Part shown: positions 2,441 through 61,831 of the stretch, one piece after another
Numbering within the stretch: the first letter of the stretch is position 1
How the letters are laid out: every line of letters starts with the position of its first letter
Source of the DNA: Bacteroidales bacterium
Lineage (GTDB): Bacteria; Bacteroidota; Bacteroidia; Bacteroidales; UBA3824
Length of the DNA stretch: 64,000 nt
Assembly: GCA_017417315.1 (NCBI GenBank)
Contig: JAFPZK010000053.1
Coordinates: 31,798 to 95,797 of the forward strand
Direction: 5' to 3'
Program-made: the position numbers and the translations under genes
The notes under the pieces: generated by a model
Seen by the model: only the letters and a program-made list of their open reading frames with translations
Database searches by the model: none
Told to the model about the DNA's origin: nothing

Positions 2441-2445
2441 TATTT

Positions 2446-2483
2446 AATTTATAACCGAGGGTGTAAACCCTCGGTTATAAATT
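2446..2483. terminator. Hairpin terminator between convergent sprA and ruvA
   Basis: AATTTATAACCGAGGGT-GTAA-ACCCTCGGTTATAAATT perfect inverted repeat. Confidence 0.8.
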
Positions 2484-3081: not shown

Positions 3082-3130
3082 GATTTAAATTTTTATAATT
3101 CGTGTTACAAAAATATAAAAAGTACGACAT

Positions 3131-37234: not shown

Positions 37235-38883
37235 TTAAACGTCAAAGTAACTATCCATTGTATCCCGCACTTCGGCAATTAGACGTTTCTTTTCGTCTTT
37301 GAGAACGAATGCTTGTTTCATGTCGCCAAAACACGACCTTTTTGTAACAAAAACTTCCTGATATAACCAAGCAAATTGTTACCAAATATTCCGTCAGGCA
37401 ACACAATCGCCATTCTTCCACCGAATTTCAACAACTGATAGCAACGCTCAATGAACAAGATTTGCGGTGCTTCCTTGTCGGCAAGTTTCATTTTCTCCCA
37501 ATCATTAGTGCCTTTCTTGTTTTTCCATTTGTGGGCGAGGTCGAATTGTTTTAGTTTGTCTTCTCCCGTAACAGGAATTTTGGAACCAAAAGGCGGATTG
37601 GTCAACACTACGCTGAACTCGCCGAAATGGATTTTTTGACGTGTCCTTTCTCCCCAATTTTCGGGACGTTCCAAACTATCCTCGCAAAACACGCCGCCTT
37701 TGCCGTCGCCCATTATCGCCATATACGATTTAGCAATTTTTGAGAGAAAATAATCCTTATCTATGCCCCGGATACATTTGTTTGCGACATCGATTTTTTC
37801 CTCCAAAATGGCAGTATCAGACCAACCCATTTCACGGTATCGGGTTATAATCTTGTTCCAAATGTAACGAAGCGATTCTATGATAAAACCGCCGCTGCCA
37901 CACGCAGGGTCAATTACCATATCGTTGTCGTCAGGATCAAGTATTTCAACCATCATCTTCACAACATTGCGCGGTGTAAAGAATTGACCCTGACCGCCCT
38001 TTAATGCGTGGTCGATAAATGTTTCGAAAGCATCGGCAAGCACATCGCGCTCGGCATCAATGAGACAATAATTTTGCATTTCACCTACAATGTAGGCGAT
38101 GGAATTGTCGTCAAGATTGATTACATCTTCTTTGGTAAAAACTTCGTGATATTTTGCTTTTACATCCGAAAAAAGTTTCTCGATGCGGCCGCGCACATCG
38201 GCGTTGCTTTCGTTTAAGCCGACACGGAAACGGACGATTGATTCGGGCGCAGTGAAACGCTCGTCAAATATTTTGCAGAAAATCAGATTGATGAGTTGCT
38301 GTGCCAAAACTTCGTCGCGTGTCGCCCCAATAGCATTGGCAGCCAAATAGTTGCGTATCGCTTTGAATGTTGATTTCAGGTTGTGAGTTACAATCAGTTC
38401 CTTTCGTTTGATTGCTCCAATATCTTCCAACCTTTCGCCATATTTCGGAATATTTGGAATGTCTTTGAAAAGTACACGTCCGTCATCTGTATTCTGTTTC
38501 AACAGATAAAAACGCTCCTCACCATTGAACCACACTCCGAGATTGGCTTTTGATAATGTGAGATAGTTTTCAAGTTGGGTACGACCGTCTTTTCTGTTTT
38601 TCTTTTTGCACTCGACAATCAAAAAAACTGTGTCGTCCGTTTTTTCAGTGTCGCTAAAAACTGCAATATCAACAGGATACTCCTTTTTAGTATCACTTGG
38701 ACGCACCTTTACGTGAAACTGAGGGCGTGTTTGTATTTGTGTCTTCGGATAGCCATAGTCCTCCACCAAAATTTTGGAAAAGACCTGCGTGGCTTCCACT
38801 TCTTCGGGCGACGCTTTTACTTGCTGCCCCGAAATAAAGTCTATGATATAGCCATCCTTTGGCTGAGTTTGTTCTTCTGCCAT
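37235..38883 (-). pseudogene. HsdR_N-like + N6-adenine DNA methyltransferase fusion (Type IIG-like), internally deleted
   Basis: VDIAVF..VECK nuclease motif, GQFFTP, DPACGSGG, NPPF. Frame stops mid-MTase at 37318. A helical tail DMKQAFVLKDEKKRLIAEV...FDV* follows in another frame, then a terminator at ~37186-37222. Confidence 0.8.
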
Positions 38884-38944
38884 TGCACTATGCATTTTTA
38901 GGGCGATTGCTTATCTGTTTTCGGTTTGACGTGCAATTCTGACA

Positions 38945-46102: not shown

Positions 46103-49100
46103 TTACTCTTGTTGAACGTTTTTCATTTTTTTCTCAATTTCGCGCAGAGCCTCTTCGTGGAGCACGCGCTTGTATTCGATAGGCGTTACCTGAATGAACT
46201 CCTCGATGTATTTGTCCCAATCGTCGAGCATACGTTTTGCCAAGGGCGAATTTGTGTGCTTGTAGTGGTTTTCGATGAGGGCGCGAAGTTCGTTGCGACG
46301 GGCTTTTTCTTCAATAAGGCTGAGTTCAATCATATCCATATTGCAGTAGTAGTCGAAGTTGTGGTTTTTGTCCCACACGTAAGCCAAACCGCCCGACATA
46401 CCGGCTGCAAAGTTTCGTCCCGTAGTGCCGAGCACCACCACGCGACCGCCTGTCATATATTCGCAGCAATGATCGCCCGTGCCCTCTACCACGGCTGTGG
46501 CACCTGAGTTGCGCACTGCAAAACGTTCGCCTACACGTCCGTTGATGTAAATTTCGCCTGATGTTGCGCCGTAAAGTATTGTGTTGCCGGCAATTATATT
46601 TTCTTCAGGGGCAAATATAGCGTTGTGAGCCGGGTAAATGCTTATTGAGCCGCCCGAAAGACCTTTGCCCACATAGTCGTTGGCCTCGCCTTCGAGTTTG
46701 AAGTTGACACCTTTGGCAAGGAACGCTCCGAAACTCTGTCCTGCCGAACCACGGAATTGGATGTTGATAGTGCCGTCGGGAAGTCCGTTGCAACCATATT
46801 TCTTGGCTATTGTGCCAGAGAGCATTGCGCCCACTGCACGGTCGGTGTTGATGATGTTGTAATATAGACTTACGGGACGTTTGGTGTCCATTGCCTCGGC
46901 TGTGCCTGTGATAATCTTGTTGTCGAGCACCTCGGGCAGAGTGTGGCAGTTGTCCTGAGTTTTGAAAACATCTGCGCCGTTGTTGATGCGTGTGAGCATC
47001 TTGGCAAAGTCGAGAGTGCGGGTCTTGTCGGTAAACTTGGTCTGATCAATTTCGATGAGGTCGGTGCGGCTGATGATGTCGCTGAACTTGCGGAATCCCA
47101 TCTGAGCCAAATACTCTCTAACCTCTTGGGCAAGAAACATATAGTAGTTTACGAGATATTCGCTGCGGCCGAGGAAACGCTCGCGGAGTTTGGGGTCTTG
47201 TGTAGCCACGCCCACGGGACAAGCATTGGTATGACATTTACGCATTAATACACAGCCAAGCACTATCAACTGAGCCGTTCCGAAGCCGAACTCGCCTGCG
47301 CCGAGAAGTGCCATTGCGATGACGTCGCGACCTGTTTTTAACTGTCCGTCTACCTGAACCTCCACCTGCGAACGAAGGTTGTTTAAAACCAAAGTCTGCT
47401 GAGTTTCGGCAAGTCCTATTTCGGGCGAAATTCCCGCGTAACGTATTGACGATGCGGGAGATGCACCCGTGCCGCCTTCTGCGCCGGAGATGACAATCAG
47501 GTCGGCTTTGGCTTTTGCAACGCCTGCCGCAATTGTTCCCACGCCGGTTTCGGCAACGAGTTTTACGCTTATTTTGGCTTTGGGGTTAACGTTGCGGAGG
47601 TCGTAAATCAACTGTGCAAGGTCTTCGATAGAGTAAATATCGTGGTGAGGCGGGGGCGAAATGAGCGAGATTCCCGGAATAGAGTTACGAGTTTTGGCAA
47701 TCACCTCGTTAACCTTAAATCCGGGCAACTGACCACCCTCGCCGGGTTTTGCGCCCTGAGCCACTTTAATTTGAATTTCAGAGGCGTTTACAAGGTATTC
47801 TGCCGTTACACCAAAACGTCCGCTTGCCACCTGCTTGATGGCACTGCTGAGCGAAACTCCGTCTTTCTTTTCGTAGAAACGGGCATTGTCTTCGCCGCCT
47901 TCGCCAGTGTTGCTGCGGCTCTGTAATTTATTGAGTGCAAGAGCGATAGCCTCGTGAGCCTCTTTGCTTATTGCTCCGAACGACATTGCCGCACCGATAA
48001 AGCGTTTAACAATGTTTTCGGCGGGTTCTACCTCGTCGATAGAAATTGGATTAGTCTTGAATTTGAAATAATCGCGCAAGAAAATGGGTTCGGGCTTGTT
48101 GTCGATGATTGAGGTAAACTCTTTGAATTTCTGATAGTTGCCGGTGCGCGTAGAAATTTGCAGTGCGGCGATTGCCTCGGGAGTCCAGGCGTGGCGTATG
48201 CCGTCCTTGCGGAAGGAAAACTGTCCGATGTAGGGCAGGAGTTTTTCGTCGTCAACCTCTGTGTCAAAGCCTTGCGCGTGCATGCGGATTGCGTCTTTGG
48301 CGATGTAGTCGAGACCGACGCCGCCAACGCTGCATTTCCTTGTGCCGAAGTATTTGGTGAGGAACTCGCCGCCGAGTCCGATGGATTCAAAGATTTTTGC
48401 GCCACGGAACGAGCGTATGGTGCTGATGCCCATCTTGCTCATTATTTTGAGCAGGCCCTTGTCGATGGCCTTGATGTAGTTCTTTTCGGCGGTGGCGTAG
48501 TCGAGTTGGAGTTCGTCGTTCTTTACGAGGTCGTCGATGACTGCAAAAGCCATGTAGGGGTTGATTGCGCTTGCGCCAAAACCGAGCAGCAACGCCGCGT
48601 GCATTACCTCGCGGATTTCGCCCGATTCTACAATCAGGGCTGTCTGAACACGTTTTTTGATGCTTACAAGGTAATGGTGAATGGCACTTACAGCCAAGAG
48701 CGACGGAATTGCGGCGTGGTCTTTGTCGATGCCACGGTCGCTGAGGATTATGTAGTTAATTCCTTTGTCAACAGAGAGTTCCGCCTCTTTGCAAAGCCGT
48801 TCGATTGCCTCTTCAAGACCTTGCGCACCTTTTGACTTTTCGAAAAGAATCGGCAGTTTTTCGGTGTTGAAACCCTTGTAACGGATATTGCAGAGGGTGT
48901 CGAGTTCGGTGTTGGTGAGCACGGGCTGCGGCAGACGAACCATCTTGCAGTTGCTCGGGTCGGGGTTGAGGATGCTCATACTTACCGCGCCGATATATTC
49001 GGTGAGCGACATCACAAGTTCCTCGCGGATGGGGTCGATAGGCGGGTTGGTAACCTGCGCAAACTGTTGGCGGAAATAGTTGAACAACAATTGCGGACGA

Positions 49101-50572
49101 TCGGACAGCACAGCCAACTGAGTGTCGTTGCCCATAGAAGCGAGCGGCTCTTGCGCATTGGCACACATAGGAGTAATGGTGCGTTCGATATCCTCGCGGG
49201 TAAAGTCAAAACAGCGGAGTTTTTGTTTAAAATTGTCTACCGTGTTGGCAGCGTGACGGCCTGAGTGCAGTTTGGCAAGTTCGATACGGTTTTCTTGCAG
49301 CCATCCCGAATAATCGCACTCGTCGGCAAGTTGCTGTTTGATTTCGTCGTTGGAATGAATGATGCCTGTTTCGGTGTCGATAAGCACCATTTTGCCGGGT
49401 TTGAGGCGACCGTTAACCTTGATTTTGTCGGCGTCGATATGCAGACAGCCAACCTCAGACGAAAGGATAAGTTTTCCGTCGGTGGTGATTGCGTAACGGG
49501 CAGGACGAAGACCATTTCTGTCGAGCATTCCACCTGCATAGCGACCGTCGGTAAAGATGAGGGCTGCAGGACCGTCCCAAGGCTCCATCAATATGGAGTG
49601 ATATTCGTAGAACGCCTTGATTTTGGCGCTTATAGGATTCTTTTCGTTAAACGATTCGGGCACCATCATAGCCATAGCGTGGGGCAGGCTCATTCCTGAG
49701 CGAACAAAGAATTCGAGCACATTGTCGAACGCTGCGCTGTCGCTCATATCTGCCTGAATAATAGGCGAGAAGTTTTCTAATCCGCCCAAAGCCTCGGAGC
49801 GGAGAACGCTTTCGCGAGCCTCCATCCATTTGCGGTTGCCACGGATGGTGTTGATTTCGCCGTTGTGGGCAAGCATACGGAAAGGCTGTGCCAATGGCCA
49901 AGTGGGGAATGTGTTGGTGCTGAAACGTGAGTGCACAAGGGCAAGACCGCTTGTGAAGTTCGGGTTTGAAAGGTCGTTGTAATACTGTCTTAATTGCATC
50001 GACGACAGCATACCTTTGTATATGATTGTTCTATTTGAAAGCGAGACAACGTAGAAATCATTGTCTTGGATTTTTGCCTCGATACGTTTGCGTAGGAGGT
50101 AAAGTTGGGTTTCGAAACGTGCAACATCGTCGGCGCCTGTGATAAAGATTTGGACGATACGTGGTTCGGCAGCGTGAGCCTCCTCGCCGAGAATGTCGGA
50201 ATTAACGGGCACTTCGCGCACTTTTAAAAGTTCGAGACCTGCGTTTTCGGTTTCTTCAATAATGGCGGCTAAATATTTGTCGCCGAGTGCTTTATCTTTG
50301 GGCAGGAACACCATTCCCGCGCCATATTTAAGTTTTTCGGGCACGGGAATGCCCTGCAATAGGATAAATTCGTGCGGAATTTGCACGAGAATACCGGCAC
50401 CGTCGCCGGTTTTGTTGTCGGCAGCCTCAGCACCGCGGTGTTTGAGGTTTTCGAGCACAGTAAGTGCGTCTGCCACAAGTTGGTGAGTCTTGTTACCCTT
50501 CAAATCAACGAGCAAACCGATACCGCAAGCATCGTGTTCGTTTTCTTGGGAGTATAATCCTATGTCTGTCAT
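46103..50572 (-). CDS. gltB: Glutamate synthase large subunit
   Basis: EHDACG, HSRFSTNT, AQGAKPGEGGQL, SPPPHHDIYSIEDL, GERFAVRNSG. Confidence 0.98.
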   Translation of the reverse strand: MTDIGLYSQENEHDACGIGLLVDLKGNKTHQLVADALTVLENLKHRGAEAADNKTGDGAGILVQIPHEFILLQGIPVPEKLKYGAGMVFLPKDKALGDKYLAAIIEETENAGLELLKVREVPVNSDILGEEAHAAEPRIVQIFITGADDVARFETQLYLLRKRIEAKIQDNDFYVVSLSNRTIIYKGMLSSMQLRQYYNDLSNPNFTSGLALVHSRFSTNTFPTWPLAQPFRMLAHNGEINTIRGNRKWMEARESVLRSEALGGLENFSPIIQADMSDSAAFDNVLEFFVRSGMSLPHAMAMMVPESFNEKNPISAKIKAFYEYHSILMEPWDGPAALIFTDGRYAGGMLDRNGLRPARYAITTDGKLILSSEVGCLHIDADKIKVNGRLKPGKMVLIDTETGIIHSNDEIKQQLADECDYSGWLQENRIELAKLHSGRHAANTVDNFKQKLRCFDFTREDIERTITPMCANAQEPLASMGNDTQLAVLSDRPQLLFNYFRQQFAQVTNPPIDPIREELVMSLTEYIGAVSMSILNPDPSNCKMVRLPQPVLTNTELDTLCNIRYKGFNTEKLPILFEKSKGAQGLEEAIERLCKEAELSVDKGINYIILSDRGIDKDHAAIPSLLAVSAIHHYLVSIKKRVQTALIVESGEIREVMHAALLLGFGASAINPYMAFAVIDDLVKNDELQLDYATAEKNYIKAIDKGLLKIMSKMGISTIRSFRGAKIFESIGLGGEFLTKYFGTRKCSVGGVGLDYIAKDAIRMHAQGFDTEVDDEKLLPYIGQFSFRKDGIRHAWTPEAIAALQISTRTGNYQKFKEFTSIIDNKPEPIFLRDYFKFKTNPISIDEVEPAENIVKRFIGAAMSFGAISKEAHEAIALALNKLQSRSNTGEGGEDNARFYEKKDGVSLSSAIKQVASGRFGVTAEYLVNASEIQIKVAQGAKPGEGGQLPGFKVNEVIAKTRNSIPGISLISPPPHHDIYSIEDLAQLIYDLRNVNPKAKISVKLVAETGVGTIAAGVAKAKADLIVISGAEGGTGASPASSIRYAGISPEIGLAETQQTLVLNNLRSQVEVQVDGQLKTGRDVIAMALLGAGEFGFGTAQLIVLGCVLMRKCHTNACPVGVATQDPKLRERFLGRSEYLVNYYMFLAQEVREYLAQMGFRKFSDIISRTDLIEIDQTKFTDKTRTLDFAKMLTRINNGADVFKTQDNCHTLPEVLDNKIITGTAEAMDTKRPVSLYYNIINTDRAVGAMLSGTIAKKYGCNGLPDGTINIQFRGSAGQSFGAFLAKGVNFKLEGEANDYVGKGLSGGSISIYPAHNAIFAPEENIIAGNTILYGATSGEIYINGRVGERFAVRNSGATAVVEGTGDHCCEYMTGGRVVVLGTTGRNFAAGMSGGLAYVWDKNHNFDYYCNMDMIELSLIEEKARRNELRALIENHYKHTNSPLAKRMLDDWDKYIEEFIQVTPIEYKRVLHEEALREIEKKMKNVQQE

Positions 50573-50599
50573 TTGCGTTTTGTTTTGATTTTTACACAA

Positions 50600-50730
50600 C
50601 GCAAAGTTACGGCGGCAACGTTTTTTGTGCAATACCGATTGTTCGTAATGGGTTATAAAATTTTATACGTATTTTTACGAAGGGCAGATACGAGAATTGC
50701 GGATGGCAGGGTACGGGAAATACGGAAGGG
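50600..50730 (-). promoter_or_regulatory. gltB promoter with repeated TACG boxes; homologous to the glnA upstream region
   Basis: -7 box TAACTTTG at 50602-50609 (minus strand); 28-bp block TGTGCAATACCGATTGTTCGTAATGGGT identical to 61893-61920. Confidence 0.75.
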
Positions 50731-50817
50731 GGGAGAGATTTATATTTAATGAAGAAAAATTTTTCCTTTTACGCAAATTATGCTAATTTTGCAAGTGTTG
50801 TAAACACGCAAAATATT

Positions 50818-53784
50818 ATGCTCGAAAAAGACATTGAAAATAACCTAATTAACATCCTTTCGTCTAATCTGAAATTCACTTACAGAGAGGACATAAAGGA
50901 TCGCAAGGCATTGGAGGAGAATTTCAGACAGAAGTTCAACAGACATAACTATGTCAATCTTACTGACTTGGAATTTGCCCGACTTTTGGACGAAATTGTT
51001 ACTTCCGACGTATTTGAAGCCTCAAAAAAACTGAGGACTATCAATACTTTTATGCGTCAGGACGAAACGCCTCTGCAATATTCGCTTATCAACACCAAAG
51101 ACGTGTGCAAAAACGATTTTGAGTTTGTAACACAACTCAAAATCAACACGCGCAACAGTTTTCAGCGTTACGACGTGGTGTTGCTTATCAACGGATTGCC
51201 CGTTATGCAGATAGAACTCAAAACCGTAGACGTAAGTCCGCGCCGAGCAATGCAGCAGATTATCGACTACAAAAACGACTCAGGCAACGGCTATCAAAAT
51301 ACACTGTTGTGTTTCATTCAGATTTTTGCAGTTAGCAATTTTACCAACACATATTATTTTGCCAACAACAATAACAAATACTTCAACTTCAATGCCGAAG
51401 AACAGTATTTGCCTGTATATCAATGGGCTAATCGTCAAAACGAAAGAGTAAGCCGCCTTGACAATTTTGCCGAAAGTTTCCTCAAAAAAGAAAAACTCGG
51501 CGTAATGATAAGCCGTTATATGGTTTTGTTGGAGACCGAAAGGCGTATTCTTATAATGCGTCCATACCAAATCTATGCCGTAAAGGCGATAATGAAATGT
51601 ATCGAAGAAAACCGTGGCAACGGATACATCTGGCACACCACAGGCAGCGGAAAGACCCTCACCTCTTTCAAGGCAGCCACTTTGATGAAAGACAATCCTA
51701 ACATCGACAAGTGCCTTTTTGTAGTAGACCGCAAAGACTTAGACAAGCAGACTCGCGACGAGTTCAACCGTTTTCAAGAAAAATGTGTGGAGGAAAACAC
51801 CAATACGGGTGAACTTGTAAGACGTATGCTCAGCACCAACTATGCCGATAAAATAATAGTTTGCACAATCCAAAAACTCGGCATCGCCCTTGATTCGCAT
51901 TATCGGGAGCAACTCAAAGCGATTAAAAATCAACGTCTTGTCTTTATTTTCGATGAGTGCCACCGTTCTCAGTTTGGCGAAAACAACAAGGCGATAAAAG
52001 AGTTTTTCCCTAATGCAAGGCTTTTTGGTTTTACAGGAACTCCCATTTTTGATAAAAACGCAAAAACGATTACCGCCACAGGCGAGGAGGCTCGTTATAT
52101 GACTACGCAAGACGTTTTTCAAAACCTCCTTCACTCTTACACCATTACCGATGCCATCAGAGACAAAAACGTGCTGCGATTCCACGTGGATTATTTTGTA
52201 CCCGCCGACACAGACTTCGACGGCAACGGCACAATCAAAAAACAGGCTGTGGTGCGTTCTGTAATACAAAAGCACGATGCTGCCACCAGTCAAAGAAAGT
52301 TTAACGCCATTTTTGCAACTTCATCAATCAACGACGCCATAGAATATTACAATGTTTTTGAGCAGGAACAGCAAAAAAATGTAGATGAAAACCCTGATTA
52401 CAAGCCGCTTAATATCACTTGTCTATTCTCTCCGCCTGCATACGACAACAAAGACATTCAGCAGATTCAGGAAGATTTGCCAAACGAATATCGCGACAAT
52501 CATCAAGAACCCGAAAAAAAGAAATTGGCTCTCGAAAAGATTATCGACGATTACAATCGGCGTTATTCCACCAATCACTCTATCAACGAGTTTGATTCGT
52601 ATTATCAGGACGTTCAGACAAGAATAAAGGCGCAGAAATATCCTGAAAAAGATTATCCGCATCAAAACAAAACCGACATCACTATTGTTGTGGATATGCT
52701 TTTGACGGGTTTCGACTCCAAATACCTCAACACCTTGTATGTGGACAAAAAACTGAAATACCACGGACTTGTTCAGGCTTTTTCGCGTACCAACAGAATA
52801 CTCAACGATTCAAAACCTTACGGCAACATCTTGGATTTCAGAAACCAACAACAAGAAACCGACGAGGCCATCCAACTATTTTCGGAAGGCGATAAGGAGA
52901 CAATACGCGAAGTGTGGCTCGTAGAACCTGCCAAAAATATTTTGCAGAAATACGAAGAAAAGGTGCAAGACCTCAAAAAACTTATGTCGTGGAACGAGGA
53001 AATCAACACCGACGATATAGCCAACCTCAACACCGACGGCGAAAAAGTTGCATTTATACAGGCTTTCAAAGAGGTTCAACGCCTAAAAACGCAACTCAGC
53101 CAATACACCGACTTAACGGAAGATGACAAGGAAAAAATTGAAAGTCTCATTGACGACAACGACCTTTGCCTACTACGCGGCGCATATCTCGACACCGCCC
53201 GCGACCTCAAACGCAGCAGCGACACCGCACACAAAGAAGGCAAACAGTCTGAATTAGACGATATTGATTTTGAGTTTATCTTGTTTGCCTCCGTTGTGGT
53301 AGACTACGATTATATAATGCAACTGATTTCGCAGTACACGGGCTATCACACCAAAGAAAAACTCACTAAGGATCAGTTGATTGCACGTGTACGCGCCGCC
53401 GCCAACCTTTTCGACGAACGAGACGACATCGAGGAGTACATCAACACGCTCGAAGTTGGCGATGGCATCAACGGCAAAACCGTACAGGAAATCAAAGACG
53501 GTTACATCGCATTCAAAGAGCGTAAAAACAACGCCGCCGTAGCCCAAATTGCCGAAACACACGGTTTGGCGATAGAAGCGTTAAAAACATTCATCAAACA
53601 AATCCTCGACCGAATGATTTTTGACTCTGACAAACTCGACGACCTTTTAGCACCGCTCAACCTCGGTTGGCGCGAAAAAGCCAAAAAAGAAAACCAACTT
53701 ATGGCAGACCTCGCCCCACTACTAAAAACCTTGGCAAACGGCAAAGAAATTTCAGGACTATCGGCGTATGAAAATATAAAATAA
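50818..53784 (+). CDS. hsdR: Type I restriction endonuclease subunit R
   Basis: DVVLLINGLPVMQIELK, WHTTGSGKT, DECHRSQ, GFTGTP, LTGFD, QAFSRTNR. Confidence 0.96.
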   Translation: MLEKDIENNLINILSSNLKFTYREDIKDRKALEENFRQKFNRHNYVNLTDLEFARLLDEIVTSDVFEASKKLRTINTFMRQDETPLQYSLINTKDVCKNDFEFVTQLKINTRNSFQRYDVVLLINGLPVMQIELKTVDVSPRRAMQQIIDYKNDSGNGYQNTLLCFIQIFAVSNFTNTYYFANNNNKYFNFNAEEQYLPVYQWANRQNERVSRLDNFAESFLKKEKLGVMISRYMVLLETERRILIMRPYQIYAVKAIMKCIEENRGNGYIWHTTGSGKTLTSFKAATLMKDNPNIDKCLFVVDRKDLDKQTRDEFNRFQEKCVEENTNTGELVRRMLSTNYADKIIVCTIQKLGIALDSHYREQLKAIKNQRLVFIFDECHRSQFGENNKAIKEFFPNARLFGFTGTPIFDKNAKTITATGEEARYMTTQDVFQNLLHSYTITDAIRDKNVLRFHVDYFVPADTDFDGNGTIKKQAVVRSVIQKHDAATSQRKFNAIFATSSINDAIEYYNVFEQEQQKNVDENPDYKPLNITCLFSPPAYDNKDIQQIQEDLPNEYRDNHQEPEKKKLALEKIIDDYNRRYSTNHSINEFDSYYQDVQTRIKAQKYPEKDYPHQNKTDITIVVDMLLTGFDSKYLNTLYVDKKLKYHGLVQAFSRTNRILNDSKPYGNILDFRNQQQETDEAIQLFSEGDKETIREVWLVEPAKNILQKYEEKVQDLKKLMSWNEEINTDDIANLNTDGEKVAFIQAFKEVQRLKTQLSQYTDLTEDDKEKIESLIDDNDLCLLRGAYLDTARDLKRSSDTAHKEGKQSELDDIDFEFILFASVVVDYDYIMQLISQYTGYHTKEKLTKDQLIARVRAAANLFDERDDIEEYINTLEVGDGINGKTVQEIKDGYIAFKERKNNAAVAQIAETHGLAIEALKTFIKQILDRMIFDSDKLDDLLAPLNLGWREKAKKENQLMADLAPLLKTLANGKEISGLSAYENIK

Positions 53785-53834: not shown

Positions 53835-55712
53835 ATGAAAGTTAATACCAAACAGGCAGTTAAATTGTTCTTTCAAAATCCTTCCTTGGAGCAGGTTTTC
53901 AAGGAAGCGATTGCCAATTCTCTCGACGCTAATGCAACGAAAATTAATGTGAACATTCAAATTGATTCCTTCGAAAAACAGGAAACGTTGCAAGTGGAGA
54001 TAACAGACAACGGTGACGGCTTTACTGATATTCATTACGACAAGTTTTGTGAATTACTGAAAGTTGATGAGGAAACACACAAAGGCGTAGGTCGTTTGGT
54101 ATATCTCAGTTATTTTAACAAGATAGAAGTTTCGAGTTATTTCGATGGCAAGCACAGAACTTTTACTTTCAATGACGAATTTGATAAGGAAAAAACTGAT
54201 ATGGTTTTGACTAACAGTAATGAAACCAAACAAGAAACTACGCTTACATTCAAAGATTGCTCAATGCAGAGATTGAGCAGTTATACTGTTATAACACCCG
54301 ACAATCTCCATAAGCAGATATTACAGGAGTTTTATCCAAGGTTTTATATGCTAAAAAATGCAGGCAAAGACTTCAAAATTGCTTTTCGAATTAATGTCCC
54401 TCATAAAAACAAGAAACATTCTGTTGGCTCTTATGAAAGAACTATCACAAAATCAGACATTCCTGATATGCAAAATGTAACGATAGACAGTAGCAATATC
54501 AGAATGTTTGATAACTCTTTCATCGATTATGCGATAGAAAAGACAGATTCTCAATTAGAAACTTTCCTTATGACCGCCCTTTGCGTTGATGACAGGACAC
54601 AAATATTAGACGACATCATCGCATTGGAAAATCTGCCGCCGTTTGGTTACAGAATAGTGTTCATTTTACATTCTACATTGTTCAACGGCAAAGTAGATGC
54701 AGCACGGCAAGTGCTTACCATAAAAGAAGTTGAATTAAGGGAAATAAAACTATTGTTCAGGCAAAAGGTTTCCGAAATTGTTGAACAGGAAATCCCTACA
54801 ATCAAAGAACAGAACTTACGCACAAGAGAATCATTAGGCAAAACATATCCGCACCTTCTCGGCTATTTTGACAATAACGAAGTTGGAATTATTGAACGTT
54901 CCAAATCCATAGAAGAGGCGCAAAGACGCTTTTTGCGCGATCAAAAGGATATTTTGGAGGCTCAGTCTTTGGACGACGACAAATACAACAAGGCTTTGGA
55001 CGTATCGTCAAGGACACTTGCCCAATACATTTTGTATAGGGAAAAAATCATTTCAAAAGTAGAGCAATTGACAGACAAGAACTCGGAAGCCGACCTTCAT
55101 AATATCATTTTGCCACAACGCTCGGTATTGCACGAGGGTGCATTCGACAGTATGTACAGCAACAACCTTTGGTTGTTGGACAACAAGTATATGACATACA
55201 CCACAGCAATGAGCGAACGCACTATGAAAGAAGTGCTTGACGAAATTACACAATCGTCCACAGAAAAAAACAACGACCGCCCCGACATCGTAGTTATGTT
55301 TTCAAACGACCCTTCCAATACAGAGAATAGGTCGGTGGATGTGGTAATTATCGAACTAAAAAAACGCGGTATAAAGTTGGCAAAAGCAGAAGAGGCAATC
55401 AGCCAACTAAAACAACGTGCCATAAAGTTGTTGAAATACTATCCGAACAAGATTCAGAGAATGTGGTTTTACGCCATCGTGGAATTTAACGACGATTTCA
55501 AACTGTCGTTAATTAACGACGAATACACACCCTTGTTCTCAAAAGATAGTTTGTATTACAAAGAAGTTTCGCTGCAACTAACACTCGATGACCCGACAAA
55601 ATATTTAGTTGGAACGTATGTGTTGTCTATTGATGCATTCATCAAAGACGCAAAGGCCAACAACGAAATCTTTTTAACCATACTTAAAAACGGCTTCAAA
55701 GATGCAAGATAA
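53835..55712 (+). CDS. GHKL (HATPase_c) ATPase fused to a C-terminal PD-(D/E)XK-like nuclease
   Basis: EAIANSLDA, DNGDGF, KGVGRL; C-terminal RPDIV...IIELKK. Own TATCTTTG box at 53790. Stop overlaps the hsdS start. Confidence 0.82.
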   Translation: MKVNTKQAVKLFFQNPSLEQVFKEAIANSLDANATKINVNIQIDSFEKQETLQVEITDNGDGFTDIHYDKFCELLKVDEETHKGVGRLVYLSYFNKIEVSSYFDGKHRTFTFNDEFDKEKTDMVLTNSNETKQETTLTFKDCSMQRLSSYTVITPDNLHKQILQEFYPRFYMLKNAGKDFKIAFRINVPHKNKKHSVGSYERTITKSDIPDMQNVTIDSSNIRMFDNSFIDYAIEKTDSQLETFLMTALCVDDRTQILDDIIALENLPPFGYRIVFILHSTLFNGKVDAARQVLTIKEVELREIKLLFRQKVSEIVEQEIPTIKEQNLRTRESLGKTYPHLLGYFDNNEVGIIERSKSIEEAQRRFLRDQKDILEAQSLDDDKYNKALDVSSRTLAQYILYREKIISKVEQLTDKNSEADLHNIILPQRSVLHEGAFDSMYSNNLWLLDNKYMTYTTAMSERTMKEVLDEITQSSTEKNNDRPDIVVMFSNDPSNTENRSVDVVIIELKKRGIKLAKAEEAISQLKQRAIKLLKYYPNKIQRMWFYAIVEFNDDFKLSLINDEYTPLFSKDSLYYKEVSLQLTLDDPTKYLVGTYVLSIDAFIKDAKANNEIFLTILKNGFKDAR

Positions 55713-57009
55713 TAAACAATATACACCCGAATTGCGTTTCCCAGAATTTCACGACGATTGGCAGGTATATACGATGGAGACTATATTCGTAATGAAAAAT
55801 GGATATACGCCATCCAAATCTAATCCTAAATTTTGGGAAAATGGAACGATTCCGTGGTTTAGAATGGAAGATATTAGACAGAATGGAACTATTTTGTCAG
55901 ATTCGATACAACATATAACGCCCGATGCAGTCAAAAATAGTGGTTTATTTCCTGCGTATTCAATTATTTTGGCAACGACAGCGACTATTGGAGAACACGC
56001 ATTAATAATTGTTGATTCGCTTGCGAATCAACAATTTACGTTTTTAACAAAACGTAAATCGTTCGATAATTTAATTGATATGATGTATTTTTATCATTAT
56101 ATGTTTATTATTGACGAATGGTGCAAATCAAATACAAATGCAGGTGGATTGTTATCTGTTAATATGCCCGCATTAAAAAAATTGCAAATACCAATTTCCC
56201 CCATCCTCCCCGAACAGCGCAAAATAGCCTTATGTCTGTCATCGTTAGACGATTTGATAAAATCCGTTGGCGACAAAATCGAATTGTTGAAACAACATAA
56301 AAAAGGATTGATGCAGAAATTGTTTCCGAAAACACACGGTACGACATACGGACGCGGTAACGGACACGGTAGAGACGCAAAATTTTGCGTCTCTACAAAC
56401 CCAACCATTGTACCCGAATTGCGGTTTCCTGAATTTTCAGGGGATTGGCAGGTGAAAACGTTAGGGGATATTGCGGAAATAAATCCTAAATCACTTGAAC
56501 CTATTCCTACGGAATTTTATTATATTGATTTAGAAAGTGTATGTTCAGGCAGATTACAAAAACGACAAATTGTACAGTTGCTTAATGCACCAAGTAGAGC
56601 GCAAAGACAGTTCCATAGGGATGATATTCTTTTTCAGACAGTTAGGCCTTATCAAAAAAACAATCTTTATGTAGATTTCAATTGTTCTAATTATATTGCT
56701 TCTACGGGTTATGCTGTTATACGTTGCACAAAGGAAATATCTGATTCTAAATTTATTTACTTTGTTCTTCATAAAGATGATTTTGTAAAAAGTGTTTTGG
56801 ATAAATGTACAGGAACAAGTTATCCAGCGATAAATCCAAGCGTGTTGGGTTCCTTGTCCGTTTGTTTCCCCACCCTCGCCGAACAGCGCAAAATAGCGGC
56901 GTGTTTATCGTCCATCGATACGGCAATAGAAGAAACAGAAAAGAAACTGCAAATGTTGCAGCAGCACAAAAAAGGATTGATGCAGCGGATGTTTGTGCGG
57001 CGGGTGTAG
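55702..57009 (+). CDS. hsdS: Type I R-M specificity subunit with an in-frame REP in the central linker
   Basis: Two PELRFPEF-TRD-EQRKIA..KKGLMQ modules; linker contains GRDAKFCVST; stop TAG lies inside the REP at 57006. Confidence 0.95.
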   Translation: MQDNKQYTPELRFPEFHDDWQVYTMETIFVMKNGYTPSKSNPKFWENGTIPWFRMEDIRQNGTILSDSIQHITPDAVKNSGLFPAYSIILATTATIGEHALIIVDSLANQQFTFLTKRKSFDNLIDMMYFYHYMFIIDEWCKSNTNAGGLLSVNMPALKKLQIPISPILPEQRKIALCLSSLDDLIKSVGDKIELLKQHKKGLMQKLFPKTHGTTYGRGNGHGRDAKFCVSTNPTIVPELRFPEFSGDWQVKTLGDIAEINPKSLEPIPTEFYYIDLESVCSGRLQKRQIVQLLNAPSRAQRQFHRDDILFQTVRPYQKNNLYVDFNCSNYIASTGYAVIRCTKEISDSKFIYFVLHKDDFVKSVLDKCTGTSYPAINPSVLGSLSVCFPTLAEQRKIAACLSSIDTAIEETEKKLQMLQQHKKGLMQRMFVRRV

Positions 57010-57169
57010 AGACGCAAAATTTTGCGTCTCTACGGCAGGTTGGCGGCGTGGTGTATCAAACGGCAGGTTGGCGGCGCGGCGAATCAAATGCGGACGATGG
57101 CGTGACGATTGTAGAGACGCAAAATTTTGCGTCTCTACGAACAACCATCAAACAATAAACAATATAACA

Positions 57170-57769
57170 ATGACAGAAGAAAAATTTAGAAATAAATACA
57201 GAATACCATCGGCACGGGCAGCGTGGCACAATTACAGCGGCGGAATGTATTTCGTTACGATATGCACCCAAAAACGTGAACATTTTTTCGGCGAAATTGT
57301 TTATGACGAAAACAAAGAAGCCAAAATGAACTACACAGAATTAGGTAACATTGCGATGGAATGTTGGAAATCAATTCCTTTGCATTTTCCGCACGCAGAG
57401 GCACCATTATGGGTTGTAATGCCTAATCATATACACGGGATTATAATTATTCACAAATTGGAAAATGCCACCACCGTTGCCGTAGAGACGCAAAATTTTG
57501 CGTCTCTACCAGAAAATGGCGGTAATTATTTTGGTCCGCAATCCAAAAATTTGGCATCTATTGTGCGCGGTTTTAAAATAGGTGTTACAAAACACGCTCG
57601 TGAAAAGGGAATATTTTTTGCGTGGCAACCACGGTATCACGACCACATTGTCCGCGATTTTGACGAGATGAACCGCATTGCTGATTACATAGAAACGAAC
57701 CCGGCACGGTGGGCACAGGATAAATTAAACGATTCGGTGTTTGCGGAAATGCCAGAAATGATGAAATAA
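57170..57769 (+). mobile_element. REP-associated tyrosine transposase (RAYT, HUH/Y1 family)
   Basis: YFVTICT, HUH motif MPNHIH, WQPRYHDHIVR, catalytic YIETNP; flanked by and containing GTAG REPs. Confidence 0.92.
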
Positions 57770-57963
57770 TACAACCGTAGAGGCGCAAAATTTTTATGCC
57801 TGCCTGCCGTAGAGACGCAAAATTTTCACGTCTGCCTGACGTAGAGACGCAAAATTTTCACGTCTGCCTGACGTAAAGACGCAAAATTTTGCGTCTCTAC
57901 AAAAAAACGGCAATCATTATCTGCCGATTTAAAACAATTAATGAAAAACGACGAAAACTAATA

Positions 57964-59544
57964 ATGGCACAAAATAACCAACAAGAACTCGGCAAGACGC
58001 TTTGGAGCATTGCCGACAGATTAAGAGGAGCAATGATGGCGGACGATTTCCGCGATTATATGCTTTCGTTTCTGTTTTTGAAACACCTTTCAGACAGTTA
58101 CGAAAAGTCGGCTCAAAAAGAATTGGGCGAGGAATATCACGGTTCGTTACAGCAATGGTACAAAGACAATCCCGATGATGTTGAATTGTTTGAAAACCAA
58201 ATGCGTAAGCGCAATCATTATGTTATTCAGCCAGACTATTTGTGGAGCAATATCGCCAACCTTGCCGACAAACAAGACGAGGAACTTTTGCGGACATTGG
58301 AAAAGGGTTTCAAATTTATCGAAGAAGATTCGTTTGAAAGTTCGTTCAAAGGGTTGTTTTCTGAAATCAACCTCAATTCCGAAAAACTCGGCAAGGATTA
58401 CACCAGCCGCAACAAACTACTCTGCAAGGTGATTTCCACATTGGAAGATGGCTTGAAAAATTTTGCCTCCGACGACGACTACCTTGGCGATGCCTACGAA
58501 TATCTTATCGGACAGTTTGCGGCGGGTTCGGGACAGAAAGCAGGCGAATTTTATACACCTCAAAACATTTCGTCCATCTTGTCGCAAATAGTGATATTGG
58601 ATTGTCATAATCCACAATCAGGGCCCAAAAAGTCGCTTAGCAAGGTTTTGGACTTTGCCTGCGGTTCTGGGTCGTTGCTATTGAATGTGCGCCGTCAGAT
58701 GGGCAAAAACGTCATTGGCAAAATCTACGGTCAGGAAAAGAACATCACCACCTACAACCTCGCCCGTATGAATATGCTCCTTCACGGCGTTAAAGACAGC
58801 GAGTTTGAAATCCACCACGGCGACACCCTTGCCAACGATTGGGACATTCTGCGCGAGGCAAATCCGGCGCACAAAATCGAATTTGACGCAATAGTAGCCA
58901 ATCCGCCCTTTTCGCTCAGATGGGATCCTACCGAGGAAACTGCAAAAGATTTCAGGTTTGCACGTTACGGAGTTGCACCAAAATCTGCGGCAGATTTTGC
59001 ATTTTTGCTTCACGGCTTTCATTTCCTCAGCGATGGCGGTGTTATGGCGATAATACTTCCTCACGGAGTTTTGTTCCGTGGCGGCAAGGAAGAAACAATC
59101 CGCAAAAAACTCATCGAAGACGACAATATTGATGCCGTAATTGGACTACCTTCAAACCTCTTTTATTCTACGGGCATACCTGTCTGCATTTTGGTGTTGA
59201 AAAAATGCAGAAATTCAGAAGATGTATTGTTTATAAATGCCTCTGAATATTACGAAAAGGGCAAACGTCAGAATTATTTACGCGAAGAAGACATAGAACG
59301 TATTGTCTCGGCATATAAAAACCGCTCCGACATACCGCGTTTTTCGCGCAATGTGTCTTTGACCGAAATCCGCGACAACGATTTCAACCTCAACATCACC
59401 CGATATGTAAATCTTTCGGTAGAGGAAGAACCCATTGACTTACTTGATGTTAACCGTCAACTAAAAGAAACAGATGCCAAAATCGAAGAGGCTCGTAAAA
59501 AACATAATGAATTTTTGAAGGAATTGGGCTTGCCGGAGATTTAG
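57964..59544 (+). CDS. hsdM: Type I R-M methyltransferase subunit M
   Basis: LWSIADRLRG, GEFYTP, DFACGSGSLL, ANPPF, PHGVLFRG. Confidence 0.97.
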   Translation: MAQNNQQELGKTLWSIADRLRGAMMADDFRDYMLSFLFLKHLSDSYEKSAQKELGEEYHGSLQQWYKDNPDDVELFENQMRKRNHYVIQPDYLWSNIANLADKQDEELLRTLEKGFKFIEEDSFESSFKGLFSEINLNSEKLGKDYTSRNKLLCKVISTLEDGLKNFASDDDYLGDAYEYLIGQFAAGSGQKAGEFYTPQNISSILSQIVILDCHNPQSGPKKSLSKVLDFACGSGSLLLNVRRQMGKNVIGKIYGQEKNITTYNLARMNMLLHGVKDSEFEIHHGDTLANDWDILREANPAHKIEFDAIVANPPFSLRWDPTEETAKDFRFARYGVAPKSAADFAFLLHGFHFLSDGGVMAIILPHGVLFRGGKEETIRKKLIEDDNIDAVIGLPSNLFYSTGIPVCILVLKKCRNSEDVLFINASEYYEKGKRQNYLREEDIERIVSAYKNRSDIPRFSRNVSLTEIRDNDFNLNITRYVNLSVEEEPIDLLDVNRQLKETDAKIEEARKKHNEFLKELGLPEI

Positions 59545-59644
59545 GTTGTTTTTTTGATAGATTTCGACAGTTGACGCCACCGCAAAAAACGTAGAGACGC
59601 AAAATTTTGCGTCTCTACCGAATATGATGTTAAAATCCTGCCAA

Positions 59645-61831
59645 TTAGTTGATAAACAGCAACTCCCTGTACTTGGGCAGCGGCCACATATCGTTGTCTA
59701 CCACCTCTTCGAGTTTGTCAATGGGTTTGCGGATGGCAAAGAGAGATTCGGCGATGTCGTGGTATGCCTTTGCCTTGGAGTACTCGTCGGTGATGACATT
59801 GGCGGCTTTGCGGGCGTCAACCATCGAGTTCACCTTGTTGCGGATTTCGGTGATTTTGGCGGCGATGTCCTTCACAAGGTCAATTTCTACGGCTGCCATC
59901 TCGCGGTAGTTGTCGGGGAAGATGTCCTTGATTTTCTGGATGTTGTCCAAGAGTTTCGTCTGATAAGCCAACGCCGCAGGGATGATGTGGTTGATAGCCA
60001 TACGACCCATCACACGCGCCTCTATCTGAACCTTCTTGGTGTACATTTCCCAACGGACTTCGTTGCGGGCTTCGAGTTCCTTCTCGCTGTAAACGCCCAT
60101 CCGTGTGAACATTTCGATGTTCTCCTTCTTGGTGAACGCCTTGAACATTTCGGGAACGGAGGTCTCAACGTCCAAGCCGCGTTTCTTAGCCTCTTTCTGC
60201 CATTCGTCGGAATAGCCGTTGCCGTCAAAACAGATTACGTTAATTATCTGTTTGATAATCGGTTTCAGAGTGTCCATAATGGCGATGTTCATTGCCTTGC
60301 CCTCAGCCATCTCCTTGTCAACAGCCTTCTTGAACTCGGTGAGTTGGTCGGCGACGGCGGCGTTGAGGGTGGTCATAGCGTTGGCGCAGTTGGCTGACGA
60401 ACCTACGGCGCGGAACTCAAACCTGTTGCCCGTGAATGCAAACGGCGAGGTGCGGTTGCGGTCGGTGTTGTCGATGAAAATTTCGGGAATCTCAACCAAG
60501 CCAACCGACTTGCCCTTCTTGCCCGCAATCTCTATCGGGGTGTCGGACGGTACTTCGAGGAGTTTGTGCAGTACGTCGGTCATAGTCTTGCCCAAGAAAG
60601 CCGAAACAATCGCCGGAGGTGCCTCGTTGGCGCCAAGACGGTGGGCGTTGGTGGCAGAAGCAATGGAGGCTTTGAGCAATCCGTTGTATTTCTGAACGGC
60701 AGCCAGAACGTTAACAAAGAACGTTACAAATTGGAGGTTTCCTTTTGCGTCCTTGCCGGGAGCGAGCAGGAGAGTGCCGGTGTCGGTGCCGAGCGACCAG
60801 TTGTTGTGCTTGCCCGAACCGTTGATGCCGTCGAAAGGCTTTTCGTGCATCAGCACTACAAAACCGTGTTTGCGGGCGACGGCGTTCATAGTGTTCATTA
60901 TCAGTTGGTTCTGGTCGTTGCTGAGGTTTACTTCACCAAAAATCGGCGCAAGTTCAAATTGGTTGGGGGCAACCTCGTTGTGGCGTGTTTTGAGCGGGAT
61001 TCCGAGTTTGTAGCCTGCTATTTCGATGTCGCGCATAAACGCCGCCACACGTGAAGGAATTGCGCCGAAATAATGATCGTCCAACTGTTGGTTTTTTGAC
61101 GAGGCGTGTCCCATCAAAGTCCTGCCCGTGAGCATTAGGTCGGGACGTGCCGCGTAGAGGTCTTCGTCAACGAGGAAATACTCCTGCTCCCAACCCAAAT
61201 ATGCAAACACCTTCTTTACTTTCGGGTCAAACATCTTGCAGATGGGCAAGGCGGCGTCGTTGACGGCTTTGAGAGCCTTTTTGAGAGGCGTTTTGTAGTC
61301 AAGAGCCTCGCCGGTGTAAGCGATGAACACCGTTGGGATGCAGAGTGTGTCGTCCTGAATGAAAACGGGCGACGTGGGGTCCCAAGCCGTGTAGCCGCGA
61401 GCCTCAAAAGTGGCGCGGATTCCGCCGTTGGGGAACGACGAGGCGTCGGGCTCTTGCTGAACAAGCGATTTGCCGTCGAAATTCTCAATCATTCCGCCCT
61501 TGTTGTCGTATTCCATAAAGGAATCGTGCTTTTCGGCAGTGCCTTCGGTGAGGGGTTGAAACCAATGGGTGATGTGCGTTACGCCGTGTTCAATCGCCCA
61601 AGTCTTCATACCTGCGGCAACACGGTCGGCAGTGTCACGGTCGAGAGGCTTTCCGTTGTCGATGCAGTCAACAAGCGAATTGAATGTCTTGACATCGAGA
61701 TACTTGTACATCTTGTCGCGGTTGAAGACCAGTTCGCCGAAATATTCCGACGGACGGGTTTCCGGAGTCTCTACTGCAACGGCTTTCTTCTTGAAAGCGT
61801 CCTGCACTACGTCAAATCTAAGTTTGCTCAT
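59645..61831 (-). CDS. glnA: Glutamine synthetase type III
   Basis: THWFQPLT, EPDASSFP, HNEVAPNQFE, NGSGKHNNWS, DRNRTSPFAFTGNRFEFR; 728 aa. Confidence 0.96.
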   Translation of the reverse strand: MSKLRFDVVQDAFKKKAVAVETPETRPSEYFGELVFNRDKMYKYLDVKTFNSLVDCIDNGKPLDRDTADRVAAGMKTWAIEHGVTHITHWFQPLTEGTAEKHDSFMEYDNKGGMIENFDGKSLVQQEPDASSFPNGGIRATFEARGYTAWDPTSPVFIQDDTLCIPTVFIAYTGEALDYKTPLKKALKAVNDAALPICKMFDPKVKKVFAYLGWEQEYFLVDEDLYAARPDLMLTGRTLMGHASSKNQQLDDHYFGAIPSRVAAFMRDIEIAGYKLGIPLKTRHNEVAPNQFELAPIFGEVNLSNDQNQLIMNTMNAVARKHGFVVLMHEKPFDGINGSGKHNNWSLGTDTGTLLLAPGKDAKGNLQFVTFFVNVLAAVQKYNGLLKASIASATNAHRLGANEAPPAIVSAFLGKTMTDVLHKLLEVPSDTPIEIAGKKGKSVGLVEIPEIFIDNTDRNRTSPFAFTGNRFEFRAVGSSANCANAMTTLNAAVADQLTEFKKAVDKEMAEGKAMNIAIMDTLKPIIKQIINVICFDGNGYSDEWQKEAKKRGLDVETSVPEMFKAFTKKENIEMFTRMGVYSEKELEARNEVRWEMYTKKVQIEARVMGRMAINHIIPAALAYQTKLLDNIQKIKDIFPDNYREMAAVEIDLVKDIAAKITEIRNKVNSMVDARKAANVITDEYSKAKAYHDIAESLFAIRKPIDKLEEVVDNDMWPLPKYRELLFIN

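Follow-up and report, generated by a model that had tools for sequence, protein, structure and literature searches.

A RAYT cassette and its REP palindromes in a Type I restriction-modification operon of a Bacteroidales bacterium

The 64,000-nucleotide stretch analyzed here (hereafter the window, to whose positions plain coordinates refer) spans positions 31,798 to 95,797 of contig JAFPZK010000053.1 (C24) in the Bacteroidales assembly GCA_017417315.1 (G000; 3.94 Mb, 85 contigs). It contains an intact Type I restriction-modification (R-M) operon on the plus strand, between genes for glutamate synthase and type III glutamine synthetase, in which a gene for a tyrosine transposase associated with repetitive extragenic palindromes (REPs), that is, a RAYT or TnpA-REP, is embedded together with copies of a 28-nucleotide REP. 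The reading that we favor, and consider somewhat probable, is that a RAYT cassette has lodged in the guest slot of the Type I operon, that the REPs are translated or intergenic passengers, and that RAYTs of this subclass do preferentially settle or persist in operons of this kind.

Under this reading, a subclass 2.4 REP/RAYT cassette, consisting of a left REP, the RAYT gene with its internal REP, an array of degenerate REPs, and a right REP, would have settled in the variable slot that separates hsdS from hsdM, oriented with the operon. The REP copies would occupy insertion-tolerant places, namely, the disordered linker of HsdS (which thereby includes a translated REP), the hsdS stop, intergenic spacers, and a loop of the RAYT. 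The specificity of HsdS would vary via ordinary recombination in the conserved flanks of either target-recognition domain (TRD), with the REPs riding along with the conserved blocks. The preference for Type I operons, which we infer, may reflect operons that are often transferred between genomes, offer a permissive slot, and are costly to delete; lodging in such transferred operons would also explain how one identical 28-mer has reached many phyla.

RAYT genes in Type I operons

The RAYT of the window carries the motifs NHIH (the HUH motif, residues 86–89), WQPRY (at 152), and YIETNP (at 173, with T where the YIxNNP consensus has N), and aligns weakly with the Escherichia coli TnpA-REP (PDB 4ER8, E 0.031), in which WQPRF and DYIYINP are the counterparts. 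The NCBIfam model REP_Tyr_transpos matches the protein at E 6.6e-14 and 52 bits, under the 80-bit cut-off; Pfam Y1_Tnp gives no match at E<=0.001 (the homolog at locus L212 matches it at 26 bits), and neither does any PADLOC family. As in the homologs, REPs flank the gene and one lies inside it, each homolog having its own loop variant; within the genus, these REPs share stems, the palindromic loop is specific to each, and there is usually one copy within the gene. The relevant sections of two surveys describe subclass 2.4 by the motifs NH[IFV]H, WQ, and YIxxNP, a length of ~194 aa, low copy number, and REPs that flank the gene and are inserted within it, with a range that covers Bacteroidetes, Cyanobacteria, and scattered phyla (PMC6006769; Group 4 of Bertels et al. 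2017, PMC5581495). The window protein shares these motifs, length, range, and REP arrangement, so that it appears to match a subclass 2.4-like TnpA-REP as defined by Quentin et al. (PMC6006769); the text of these papers that was examined reports no link to R-M, unlike the location of the RAYT in the window. An IS200/IS605 insertion sequence was considered and rejected, given that G000 has one copy of the transposase and one 24.5%-identical relative on contig C13 instead of several near-identical copies.

Homologs of the RAYT were found in 134 of 301 genomes sampled from the order and, at E<=1e-25, in 67 of 301 sampled from the phylum. The neighborhoods of three samples were inspected: the order sample, made up of two genus loci and the 38 rows that scored best outside the genus, each with ±5 kb; a second sample of 20 lower-ranked rows, picked blind to context; and a phylum sample of 29 loci, with ±1.5 kb. 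The RAYT abuts or sits inside Type I genes at 14/40, 3/20, and 4/29 of these loci, respectively, altogether at 21 of the 89 sampled loci or, one phylum locus being a repeat, at 20 of 88 distinct ones. About 1.3% of G000, the one genome from which this base rate was taken, lies within 1.5 kb of an hsd open reading frame (ORF), against which 20/88 gives a binomial p of ~1e-19. The hsd labels were confirmed with Pfam (39 ORFs; 18 Methylase_S, 13 N6_Mtase, and 10 ResIII/SWI2_SNF2), and the gene orders at the embedded loci include M-RAYT-S, S-RAYT-M, S-RAYT-R, and R-RAYT followed by an M/S fusion. The other 43 loci have housekeeping neighbors among which no family recurs, none exceeding 5/83.

In a tree of 75 RAYT rows, from which frames shorter than 150 aa and 18 of the 30 genus loci (duplicates, split or weak matches) were left out, 17 changes are required to account for the 21 embedded rows, well-supported branches forcing at least 10 of these, and 99 of 500 label shuffles come out as low. 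Given this number of changes and a clustering no tighter than in the shuffles, the link between RAYT and Type I operons has arisen many times on this tree. That the co-location is due to chance, or to the sampling of near relatives of one R-M-borne RAYT, is very improbable. The loci were indeed chosen by likeness to an embedded RAYT, and the embedded share declines from 12/38 among the closest to 3/20 further down and 3/28 outside the order, but the last value is still above the base rate (p 0.005), gene orders and hsdM families differ among the loci, and the forced changes in the tree are independent of each other. Co-oriented lodging of RAYT genes in Type I operons is a possible vehicle for the spread of REPs, including identical REPs in distant phyla.

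Two embedded loci have composite layouts. At L197 (G053:C1:3887400-3898000), hsdM, RAYT, hsdS, RAYT, hsdR, and a RAYT fragment are interleaved on one strand in one Type I operon. L224 (5681-9139) comprises hsdR, hsdM, RAYT, hsdS, an inverted hsdS copy with 66–68-nt inverted repeats, and a Phage_integrase gene; this gene content suggests a phase-variable Type I locus in which a RAYT is present as well.

Of the 25 genomes of the genus (G000 among them), five more have the Type I family of the window operon (hsdM ~67% identical at the protein level), and the guest slot of this family is variable. G005 and G021 have no REP at the hsdS linker or stop, and an AAA_13 gene in the slot. A YhcG/DUF1016 nuclease is found in G003 and G015; in G003, it fills the slot, the loop variant GATTAATC of the REP is in the hsdS linker, and there is none at the stop. 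G015 has an exact REP in the linker, the GATTAATC variant at the stop, and no RAYT between hsdS and hsdM. In G008, the linker falls at a contig edge and was not seen, a variant REP is at the stop, and the slot holds a 51%-identical RAYT between two variant REPs. The hsdM genes of G005 and G008 are 96.5% identical despite the different slot contents. The initial annotation had allowed that homologous loci might lack REPs at the hsdS positions; G015, G003, and G008 carry them at the same linker or stop sites as the window.

The junctions of G015 and G008 form a pair. In G015, the end of hsdS is followed by a single REP, a 27-nt spacer, and hsdM; in G008, the same hsdS end is followed by a REP, the RAYT, a half-REP array, another REP, the same spacer, and hsdM. 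The hsdS-stop junction of both is that of the window with the GATTAATC loop; the window shares this hsdS end, with REPs and a RAYT of the AAAATTTT type instead. With one REP in G015 against REP-RAYT-REP in G008 and identical flanks, the RAYT cassette is gained or lost from REP to REP at the hsdS-hsdM junction. Thus, the REP sites are places where cassettes arrive, leave, and get replaced, through exchange between two REPs for which the agent may be the RAYT, slippage, or homologous recombination of the host. This allele pair, with and without the cassette and bounded by REPs, offers a small, defined locus for the study of REP-to-REP exchange.

Several observations weigh against the view of the cassette as a lodger and of the REPs as passengers. 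The RAYT is co-oriented with the hsd genes at 20 of the 21 loci (p 1e-5), adjoins hsdS at most of them, and retains its catalytic motifs in 20 of 23 embedded copies, and the open frames abut or overlap at many loci (for example, L265, L268, L224, and L217); all this would also fit a selected role in the operon. All eight REP copies in G000 lie in or beside R-M-type genes. At the hsdS linker and stop, the REPs keep their stems, and the 8-nt loop has been swapped for another palindrome between flanks that are ~88% identical (the linker REP is at the same nucleotide in G015 and G003, with identical stems and 6 of 8 loop bases different); such replacement in place suggests that these sites turn over actively rather than harboring inert passengers. 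Finally, the preference for Type I operons is not seen in the target sites themselves: around 125 REP copies, there is no target motif, flank conservation, or target-site duplication, only a weak T/C preference at -1, and 91 of the 125 have no flanking direct repeat.

Some of these features would be expected if the RAYT were a working Type I accessory, for example, a regulator or back-up effector that targets hairpin DNA or RNA, in the slot that PrrC/RloC-like and nuclease genes occupy in sister operons. Guest genes in Type I operons are well known, for example, the anticodon nuclease PrrC in EcoprrI, and the window resembles EcoprrI in that an unrelated, co-oriented gene is held between hsd genes, with the sister loci having AAA_13 or a nuclease in the slot; its guest differs from PrrC in being a REP-associated HUH transposase homolog with its own repeats. 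In favor of an accessory are these defense-type genes (AAA_13, the YhcG PDDEXK nuclease) in the slot of relatives, the co-orientation, abutting frames, and intact motifs, as well as the three RAYT genes interleaved with M, S, and R at L197. We nevertheless regard it as quite unlikely because a dedicated accessory would be expected in stable clades, whereas the embedded RAYTs are scattered on the tree among copies in housekeeping contexts, the protein is not recognized by PADLOC, and the REPs on either side of the cassette are those normally seen around a REP/RAYT unit.

RAYTs have usually been described as single-copy domesticated enzymes of unknown benefit. Literature searches, with supplements and the neighborhood tables they may hold outside their scope, recovered no paper linking RAYT or TnpA-REP with Type I R-M. 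Word look-ups found "restriction" 0 times in the text of PMC6006769, PMC3733652, PMC2817692, and PMC8266576 that was covered, once in PMC5581495, and "hsd" and "methyl" 0 times in the main text of PMC6006769, likewise without its supplements. REPs inside subclass 2.4 RAYT genes are already known from the main text of PMC6006769, and in-frame REPs in other genes from the portion of PMC3733652 devoted to them. As far as these searches reach, the recurrent linkage between RAYT and Type I operons, the REPs at hsdS borders, and the REP-bounded allele pair with and without the cassette are apparently unreported.

Recognition-domain exchange in hsdS

The initial annotation correctly located one REP in-frame in the hsdS linker and another at the hsdS stop, which it supplies as TAG, each after a KKGLMQxxF helix, and the translation agrees: the linker peptide begins 15 residues past the end of KKGLMQKLF, the stop REP is 3 codons past KKGLMQRMF, and the copies are 637 bp apart. 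In the AlphaFold2 model of HsdS (mean predicted local distance difference test score, pLDDT, 89.4), two 39-residue helices (169–207 and 392–430) are apparent, and the sole internal low-confidence segment, residues 213–232 with pLDDT <50, is the inserted peptide. Because this segment stands alone in an otherwise confident model and the insertion is missing from the hsdS alleles of G005 and G021, it is probably tolerated by HsdS. The TRDs are richer in AT than the conserved blocks (GC 0.24–0.37 vs 0.40–0.48), as had been remarked.

It had further been proposed that the RAYT could drive an exchange of TRD2, the domain bracketed by REPs, which would leave breakpoints at these REPs; here the comparisons point elsewhere. 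Between the window and G015, the conserved blocks of hsdS, including the REPs, are 90–91% identical at the DNA level and hsdM 68–70%, and both TRDs are unrelated; similarity breaks at 55766/56199 for TRD1 and 56468/56857 for TRD2, that is, at the borders of the TRDs with the conserved regions. Contigs assembled from other metagenome studies likewise have a different TRD1, with breaks at 55765/56200 (X10), or a different TRD2, with breaks at 56480/56865 (X7). The TRD2 breaks thus sit 72–84 bp and ~150 bp inside the bracketing REPs, not at them. TRD1, which has no REP upstream, has been replaced as often as TRD2 in relatives and metagenome contigs, TRD1 of G015 is TRD2 of the REP-free G005, and G015 itself has REPs in hsdS and no RAYT detectable at E<=1e-10 (the genome is 93% complete). 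Given breaks at the TRD borders, the similar variation of TRD1 and of REP-free alleles, and the lack of a detected RAYT in G015, the exchange of either TRD follows the usual pattern of recombination in conserved flanks, whether or not REPs and a RAYT are present, and a role of the RAYT in swapping the recognition domains of hsdS is not supported by these sequence data; since every allele conserves the 72 bp that separate the linker REP from TRD2, an exchange right at the REP is below the resolution of such comparison.

The shuffling of TRDs at conserved flanks is already known. In the "domain movement" of Helicobacter pylori, recombination at flanking repeats shifts a TRD from one position of an hsdS gene to the other, and G015 and G005 are alike in having the same TRD at position 1 versus position 2, with breaks in the conserved flanks; this ordinary mechanism accounts for the TRD variation seen. 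In phase-variable Type I systems, inverted hsdS copies and a tyrosine recombinase are present, and TRD modules are exchanged at conserved repeats, resulting in new specificities. A shufflon of this type was rejected for the window, where there is no second hsdS nearby and no integrase in the operon, other hsdS-like genes being located on contigs C17, C71, C51, and C24 (~130 kb off); the enzyme present is an HUH/Y1 protein.

Among the best 120 of 842 HsdS relatives (E<=1e-10), 11, the query included, contain REP peptides. In 10 of these 11 proteins, the REP is in the linker or in an N-terminal leader before a PELRF motif, and at all 11 such sites, the peptide ends 5 residues ahead of the motif. 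P0003 has REPs at the N-terminal leader, the linker, and the stop, and P0004 and P0005 differ from the window HsdS solely in TRD2 and a few linker residues. REPs at every module border, as in P0003, the constant distance to PELRF, and the TRD2 differences of P0004 and P0005 favor an alternative in which the RAYT cuts the single-stranded REP hairpins and moves REP-bounded pieces of hsdS (a TRD with its helix) between alleles or positions, providing an HUH route to new specificities. The gain and loss of the cassette between REPs, the loops replaced in place, the proximity of most RAYTs to hsdS, and their intact catalytic motifs point in the same direction. A comparable proposal exists: as reported in the text available, TnpA-REP is linked non-randomly to hypervariable prochlorosin genes of marine picocyanobacteria, for which diversifying recombination was proposed, the authors later leaving the causality of the link open (bioRxiv 10.1101/2020.03.09.984088). 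This is the nearest analog in that text, from which the window differs by RAYT subgroup and target gene family, the prochlorosin case also having no REPs.

We consider such RAYT-driven movement unlikely. Besides the breakpoints, the shuffling of the same TRDs at TRD1 and in REP-free alleles, and the hsdS REPs of G015 without a detected RAYT, no REP was found inside hsdS at most other hsd-embedded RAYT loci with a pattern that represents one stem sequence only, and L224 has the usual integrase and inverted hsdS. The two hsdS REPs are not cleanly joined in any Logan metagenome contig, these contigs breaking at REPs so that rare forms are beyond their reach. The REP-REP joints listed in them carry 4–36 foreign letters and are read as other loci with two REPs rather than deletions here. 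It is similarly doubtful that subclass 2.4 RAYTs are adapted to Type I operons, with the REPs at hsdS borders serving as docking and exchange sites at which RAYT cassettes and, less often, hsdS modules are swapped by the HUH enzyme. If true, this would let new specificities arise without an invertase or let R-M operons travel from one genome to another; action of the RAYT on hsdS would be a new way to change restriction specificity.

The REP within and beyond the operon

The 28-mer GTAGAGACGCAAAATTTTGCGTCTCTAC is a perfect palindrome, with five exact copies and one single-mismatch copy in the operon; at <=3 mismatches, the window contains six matches, compared to 0 in 100 shuffles. Folding of its single strand yields a 12-bp stem and a 4-nt loop, at -12.1 kcal/mol (z -7.4). 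A repeated palindrome of 20–40 bp that starts with GTAG, it belongs with the GTAG-tagged REPs, eight copies in the genome being few for a REP family. At this one locus, the REP is read in each of its three frames, as RDAKFCVST in the linker, as the TAG stop of hsdS, and as VETQNFASL in the RAYT. The initial annotation rightly had other REPs flanking the RAYT and closing the operon after hsdM; its inventory missed the copy inside the RAYT gene and the degenerate array downstream of it.

The 36 nt ahead of the linker REP (56333-56368; compare L134:1390-1436) consist of short repeats resembling the left arm of the REP (ACGGACACGGTA x 2), which look like the half-REP arrays before the right-hand REP of RAYT cassettes. 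The N-terminal leaders of P0003 and P0006 contain similar repeated H/G/T-rich peptides ahead of their REP. The RAYT frame is open upstream through the REPs at 57006 and 57111 (56993-57769; a 258-aa frame from TTG), and a deletion from 56369 to 57006 between the REPs is accordingly predicted to fuse half of hsdS in-frame to the RAYT.

The REP is rare in the source genome, with 8 copies at <=2 mismatches, 6 of these in the window operon. The two remaining copies are also in-frame. One is an exact REP in an MmeI-like enzyme of 956 aa encoded outside the window (G000:C24:132311-135181; L277:312-3182), where it is read as VETQNFASL around residue 639 and falls in the linker between the MmeI_Mtase and MmeI_TRD domains; the ortholog in G005 (L177) has it at the same place. 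The other, also exact, is near the C-terminus of an 808-aa ORF without a Pfam family (G000:C82:1435-3861; L278) that contains NPPY and CAGTGN motifs. The neighbors of this ORF, a DUF1848 protein, a caspase-like protein, and an AAA-ATPase/PDDEXK protein, give the region the appearance of a defense island. The loop variant GATTAATC is present at four intergenic sites of G000.

The exact REP was detected in 18 of 41 genomes (40 relatives, with 0–12 copies each, and G000). A scan of one genome per species revealed the exact 28-mer in at least 120 stretches from Bacteroidales, candidate-phyla-radiation groups, Chloroflexota, cyanobacteria, Acidobacteriota, Proteobacteria, and others. The 28-mer loci listed (L005-L124) include Nostoc and Thiothrix, with 1–2 copies per contig that are identical across distant phyla and have unconserved flanks. 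In ruminant-gut sequencing runs, the summed contig depth was 108–3730 for the REP bins and ~10 beside them. Among the at least 120 exact-REP loci, 9 of the matches listed hold a RAYT, and none of these 9 has an hsd match by tblastn.

In-frame insertion is a general habit of this REP, given that, among the matches listed, 51 of 126 copies lie within ORFs of >=200 aa, 33 of these well inside, and the ORFs that span them are unrelated, including tRNA synthetases, AcrB, and peptidases. A preference of the REP itself for R-M genes was examined and rejected: no R-M family was among the 25 families listed for 50 long REP-spanning ORFs, and a single MmeI-like gene was found among 44 ORFs beside REPs in the genus relatives. 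GTAG-tagged REPs in-frame in genes that seem to stay functional, often at protein ends or between domains, are described in the section of Di Nocera et al. 2013 on intragenic REPs (PMC3733652). These, like the Rickettsia palindromic elements, resemble the window REPs in being short GTAG palindromes in-frame in genes; that section emphasizes replication and repair genes (PMC3733652), whereas here one identical 28-mer is common to many phyla. Whichever explanation holds, annotators should be aware that HsdS, MmeI-like, and other proteins of these bacteria contain translated repeat peptides.

Features of the operon and its surroundings

The operon includes HsdR, HsdM, and a two-TRD HsdS, all intact and co-oriented according to Pfam, PADLOC, and AlphaFold2, as befits a Type I R-M system, and the ORFs with their Pfam and NCBIfam matches bear out the originally annotated order hsdR-GHKL-hsdS-RAYT-hsdM (Table 1). 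The label "GHKL/nuclease" given to the second gene holds for the ATPase (HATPase_c_3); the Pfam search revealed no nuclease domain, and no PADLOC family matches.

Table 1 Features of the Type I operon and its flanks, in window coordinates.
Feature	Position	Strand	Description
Glutamate synthase large subunit	46103..50632	-	Left flank
hsdR	50749..53784	+	Type I restriction subunit, 1011 aa; Pfam HSDR_N, ResIII, SWI2_SNF2, T1R_D3-like, EcoR124_C; PADLOC REase_I
GHKL-type ATPase	53835..55712	+	625 aa; guest gene between hsdR and hsdS; Pfam HATPase_c_3, residues 17-134
hsdS	55702..57009	+	435 aa, intact; TRD1, conserved helix 1, linker, TRD2, conserved helix 2; Pfam Methylase_S, two stretches
Linker stretch	56333..56409	+	77 bp vs 11 bp in the REP-free G005 allele, net ~66 bp more; 12-nt x 2 repeat (56348-56371), then REP
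REP copy 1	56369..56396		Exact; in-frame in hsdS linker, read GRDAKFCVST, residues 223-232
REP copy 2	57006..57033		Exact; gives TAG stop of hsdS
Direct repeat	57032..57088	+	28 nt x 2, between REP copies 2 and 3
REP copy 3	57111..57138		Exact; 31 nt 5' of RAYT start codon
RAYT (TnpA-REP)	57170..57769	+	199 aa, subclass 2.4-like; NCBIfam REP_Tyr_transpos, motif positions
REP copy 4	57482..57509		Exact; in-frame within RAYT (VETQNFASL), between HUH and Tyr motifs
Degenerate-REP array	57776..57900	+	32 nt x 3.6 (57776-57890), ending in REP copy 5
REP copy 5	57873..57900		1 mismatch
hsdM	57964..59544	+	526 aa; Pfam N6_Mtase and HsdM_N; PADLOC MTase_I
REP copy 6	59591..59618		Exact; after hsdM; T-run follows on minus strand, terminator-like for convergent glnA-III
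Type III glutamine synthetase (glnA-III)	59645..61831	-	Right flank

The GHKL-type ATPase is 92.6% identical at the protein level to its G003 homolog (L133:11882-13759), whereas the flanking hsdR is only ~55% identical between G000 and G003, so that this guest gene seems to have been exchanged apart from the operon. Elsewhere in the window, an ORF at ~37321-38910 on the minus strand (G000:C24:69118-70707) has a weak HsdM match (E 6.6e-07) and may be another N6-methyltransferase. Among plasmids, three records match the RAYT, with no hsd genes nearby in the two inspected. At L247, on plasmid pFA2 of Fulvitalea axinellae (NZ_AP025316.1), a RAYT homolog annotated as "transposase" is located directly 5' of a type I-B CRISPR-Cas operon.

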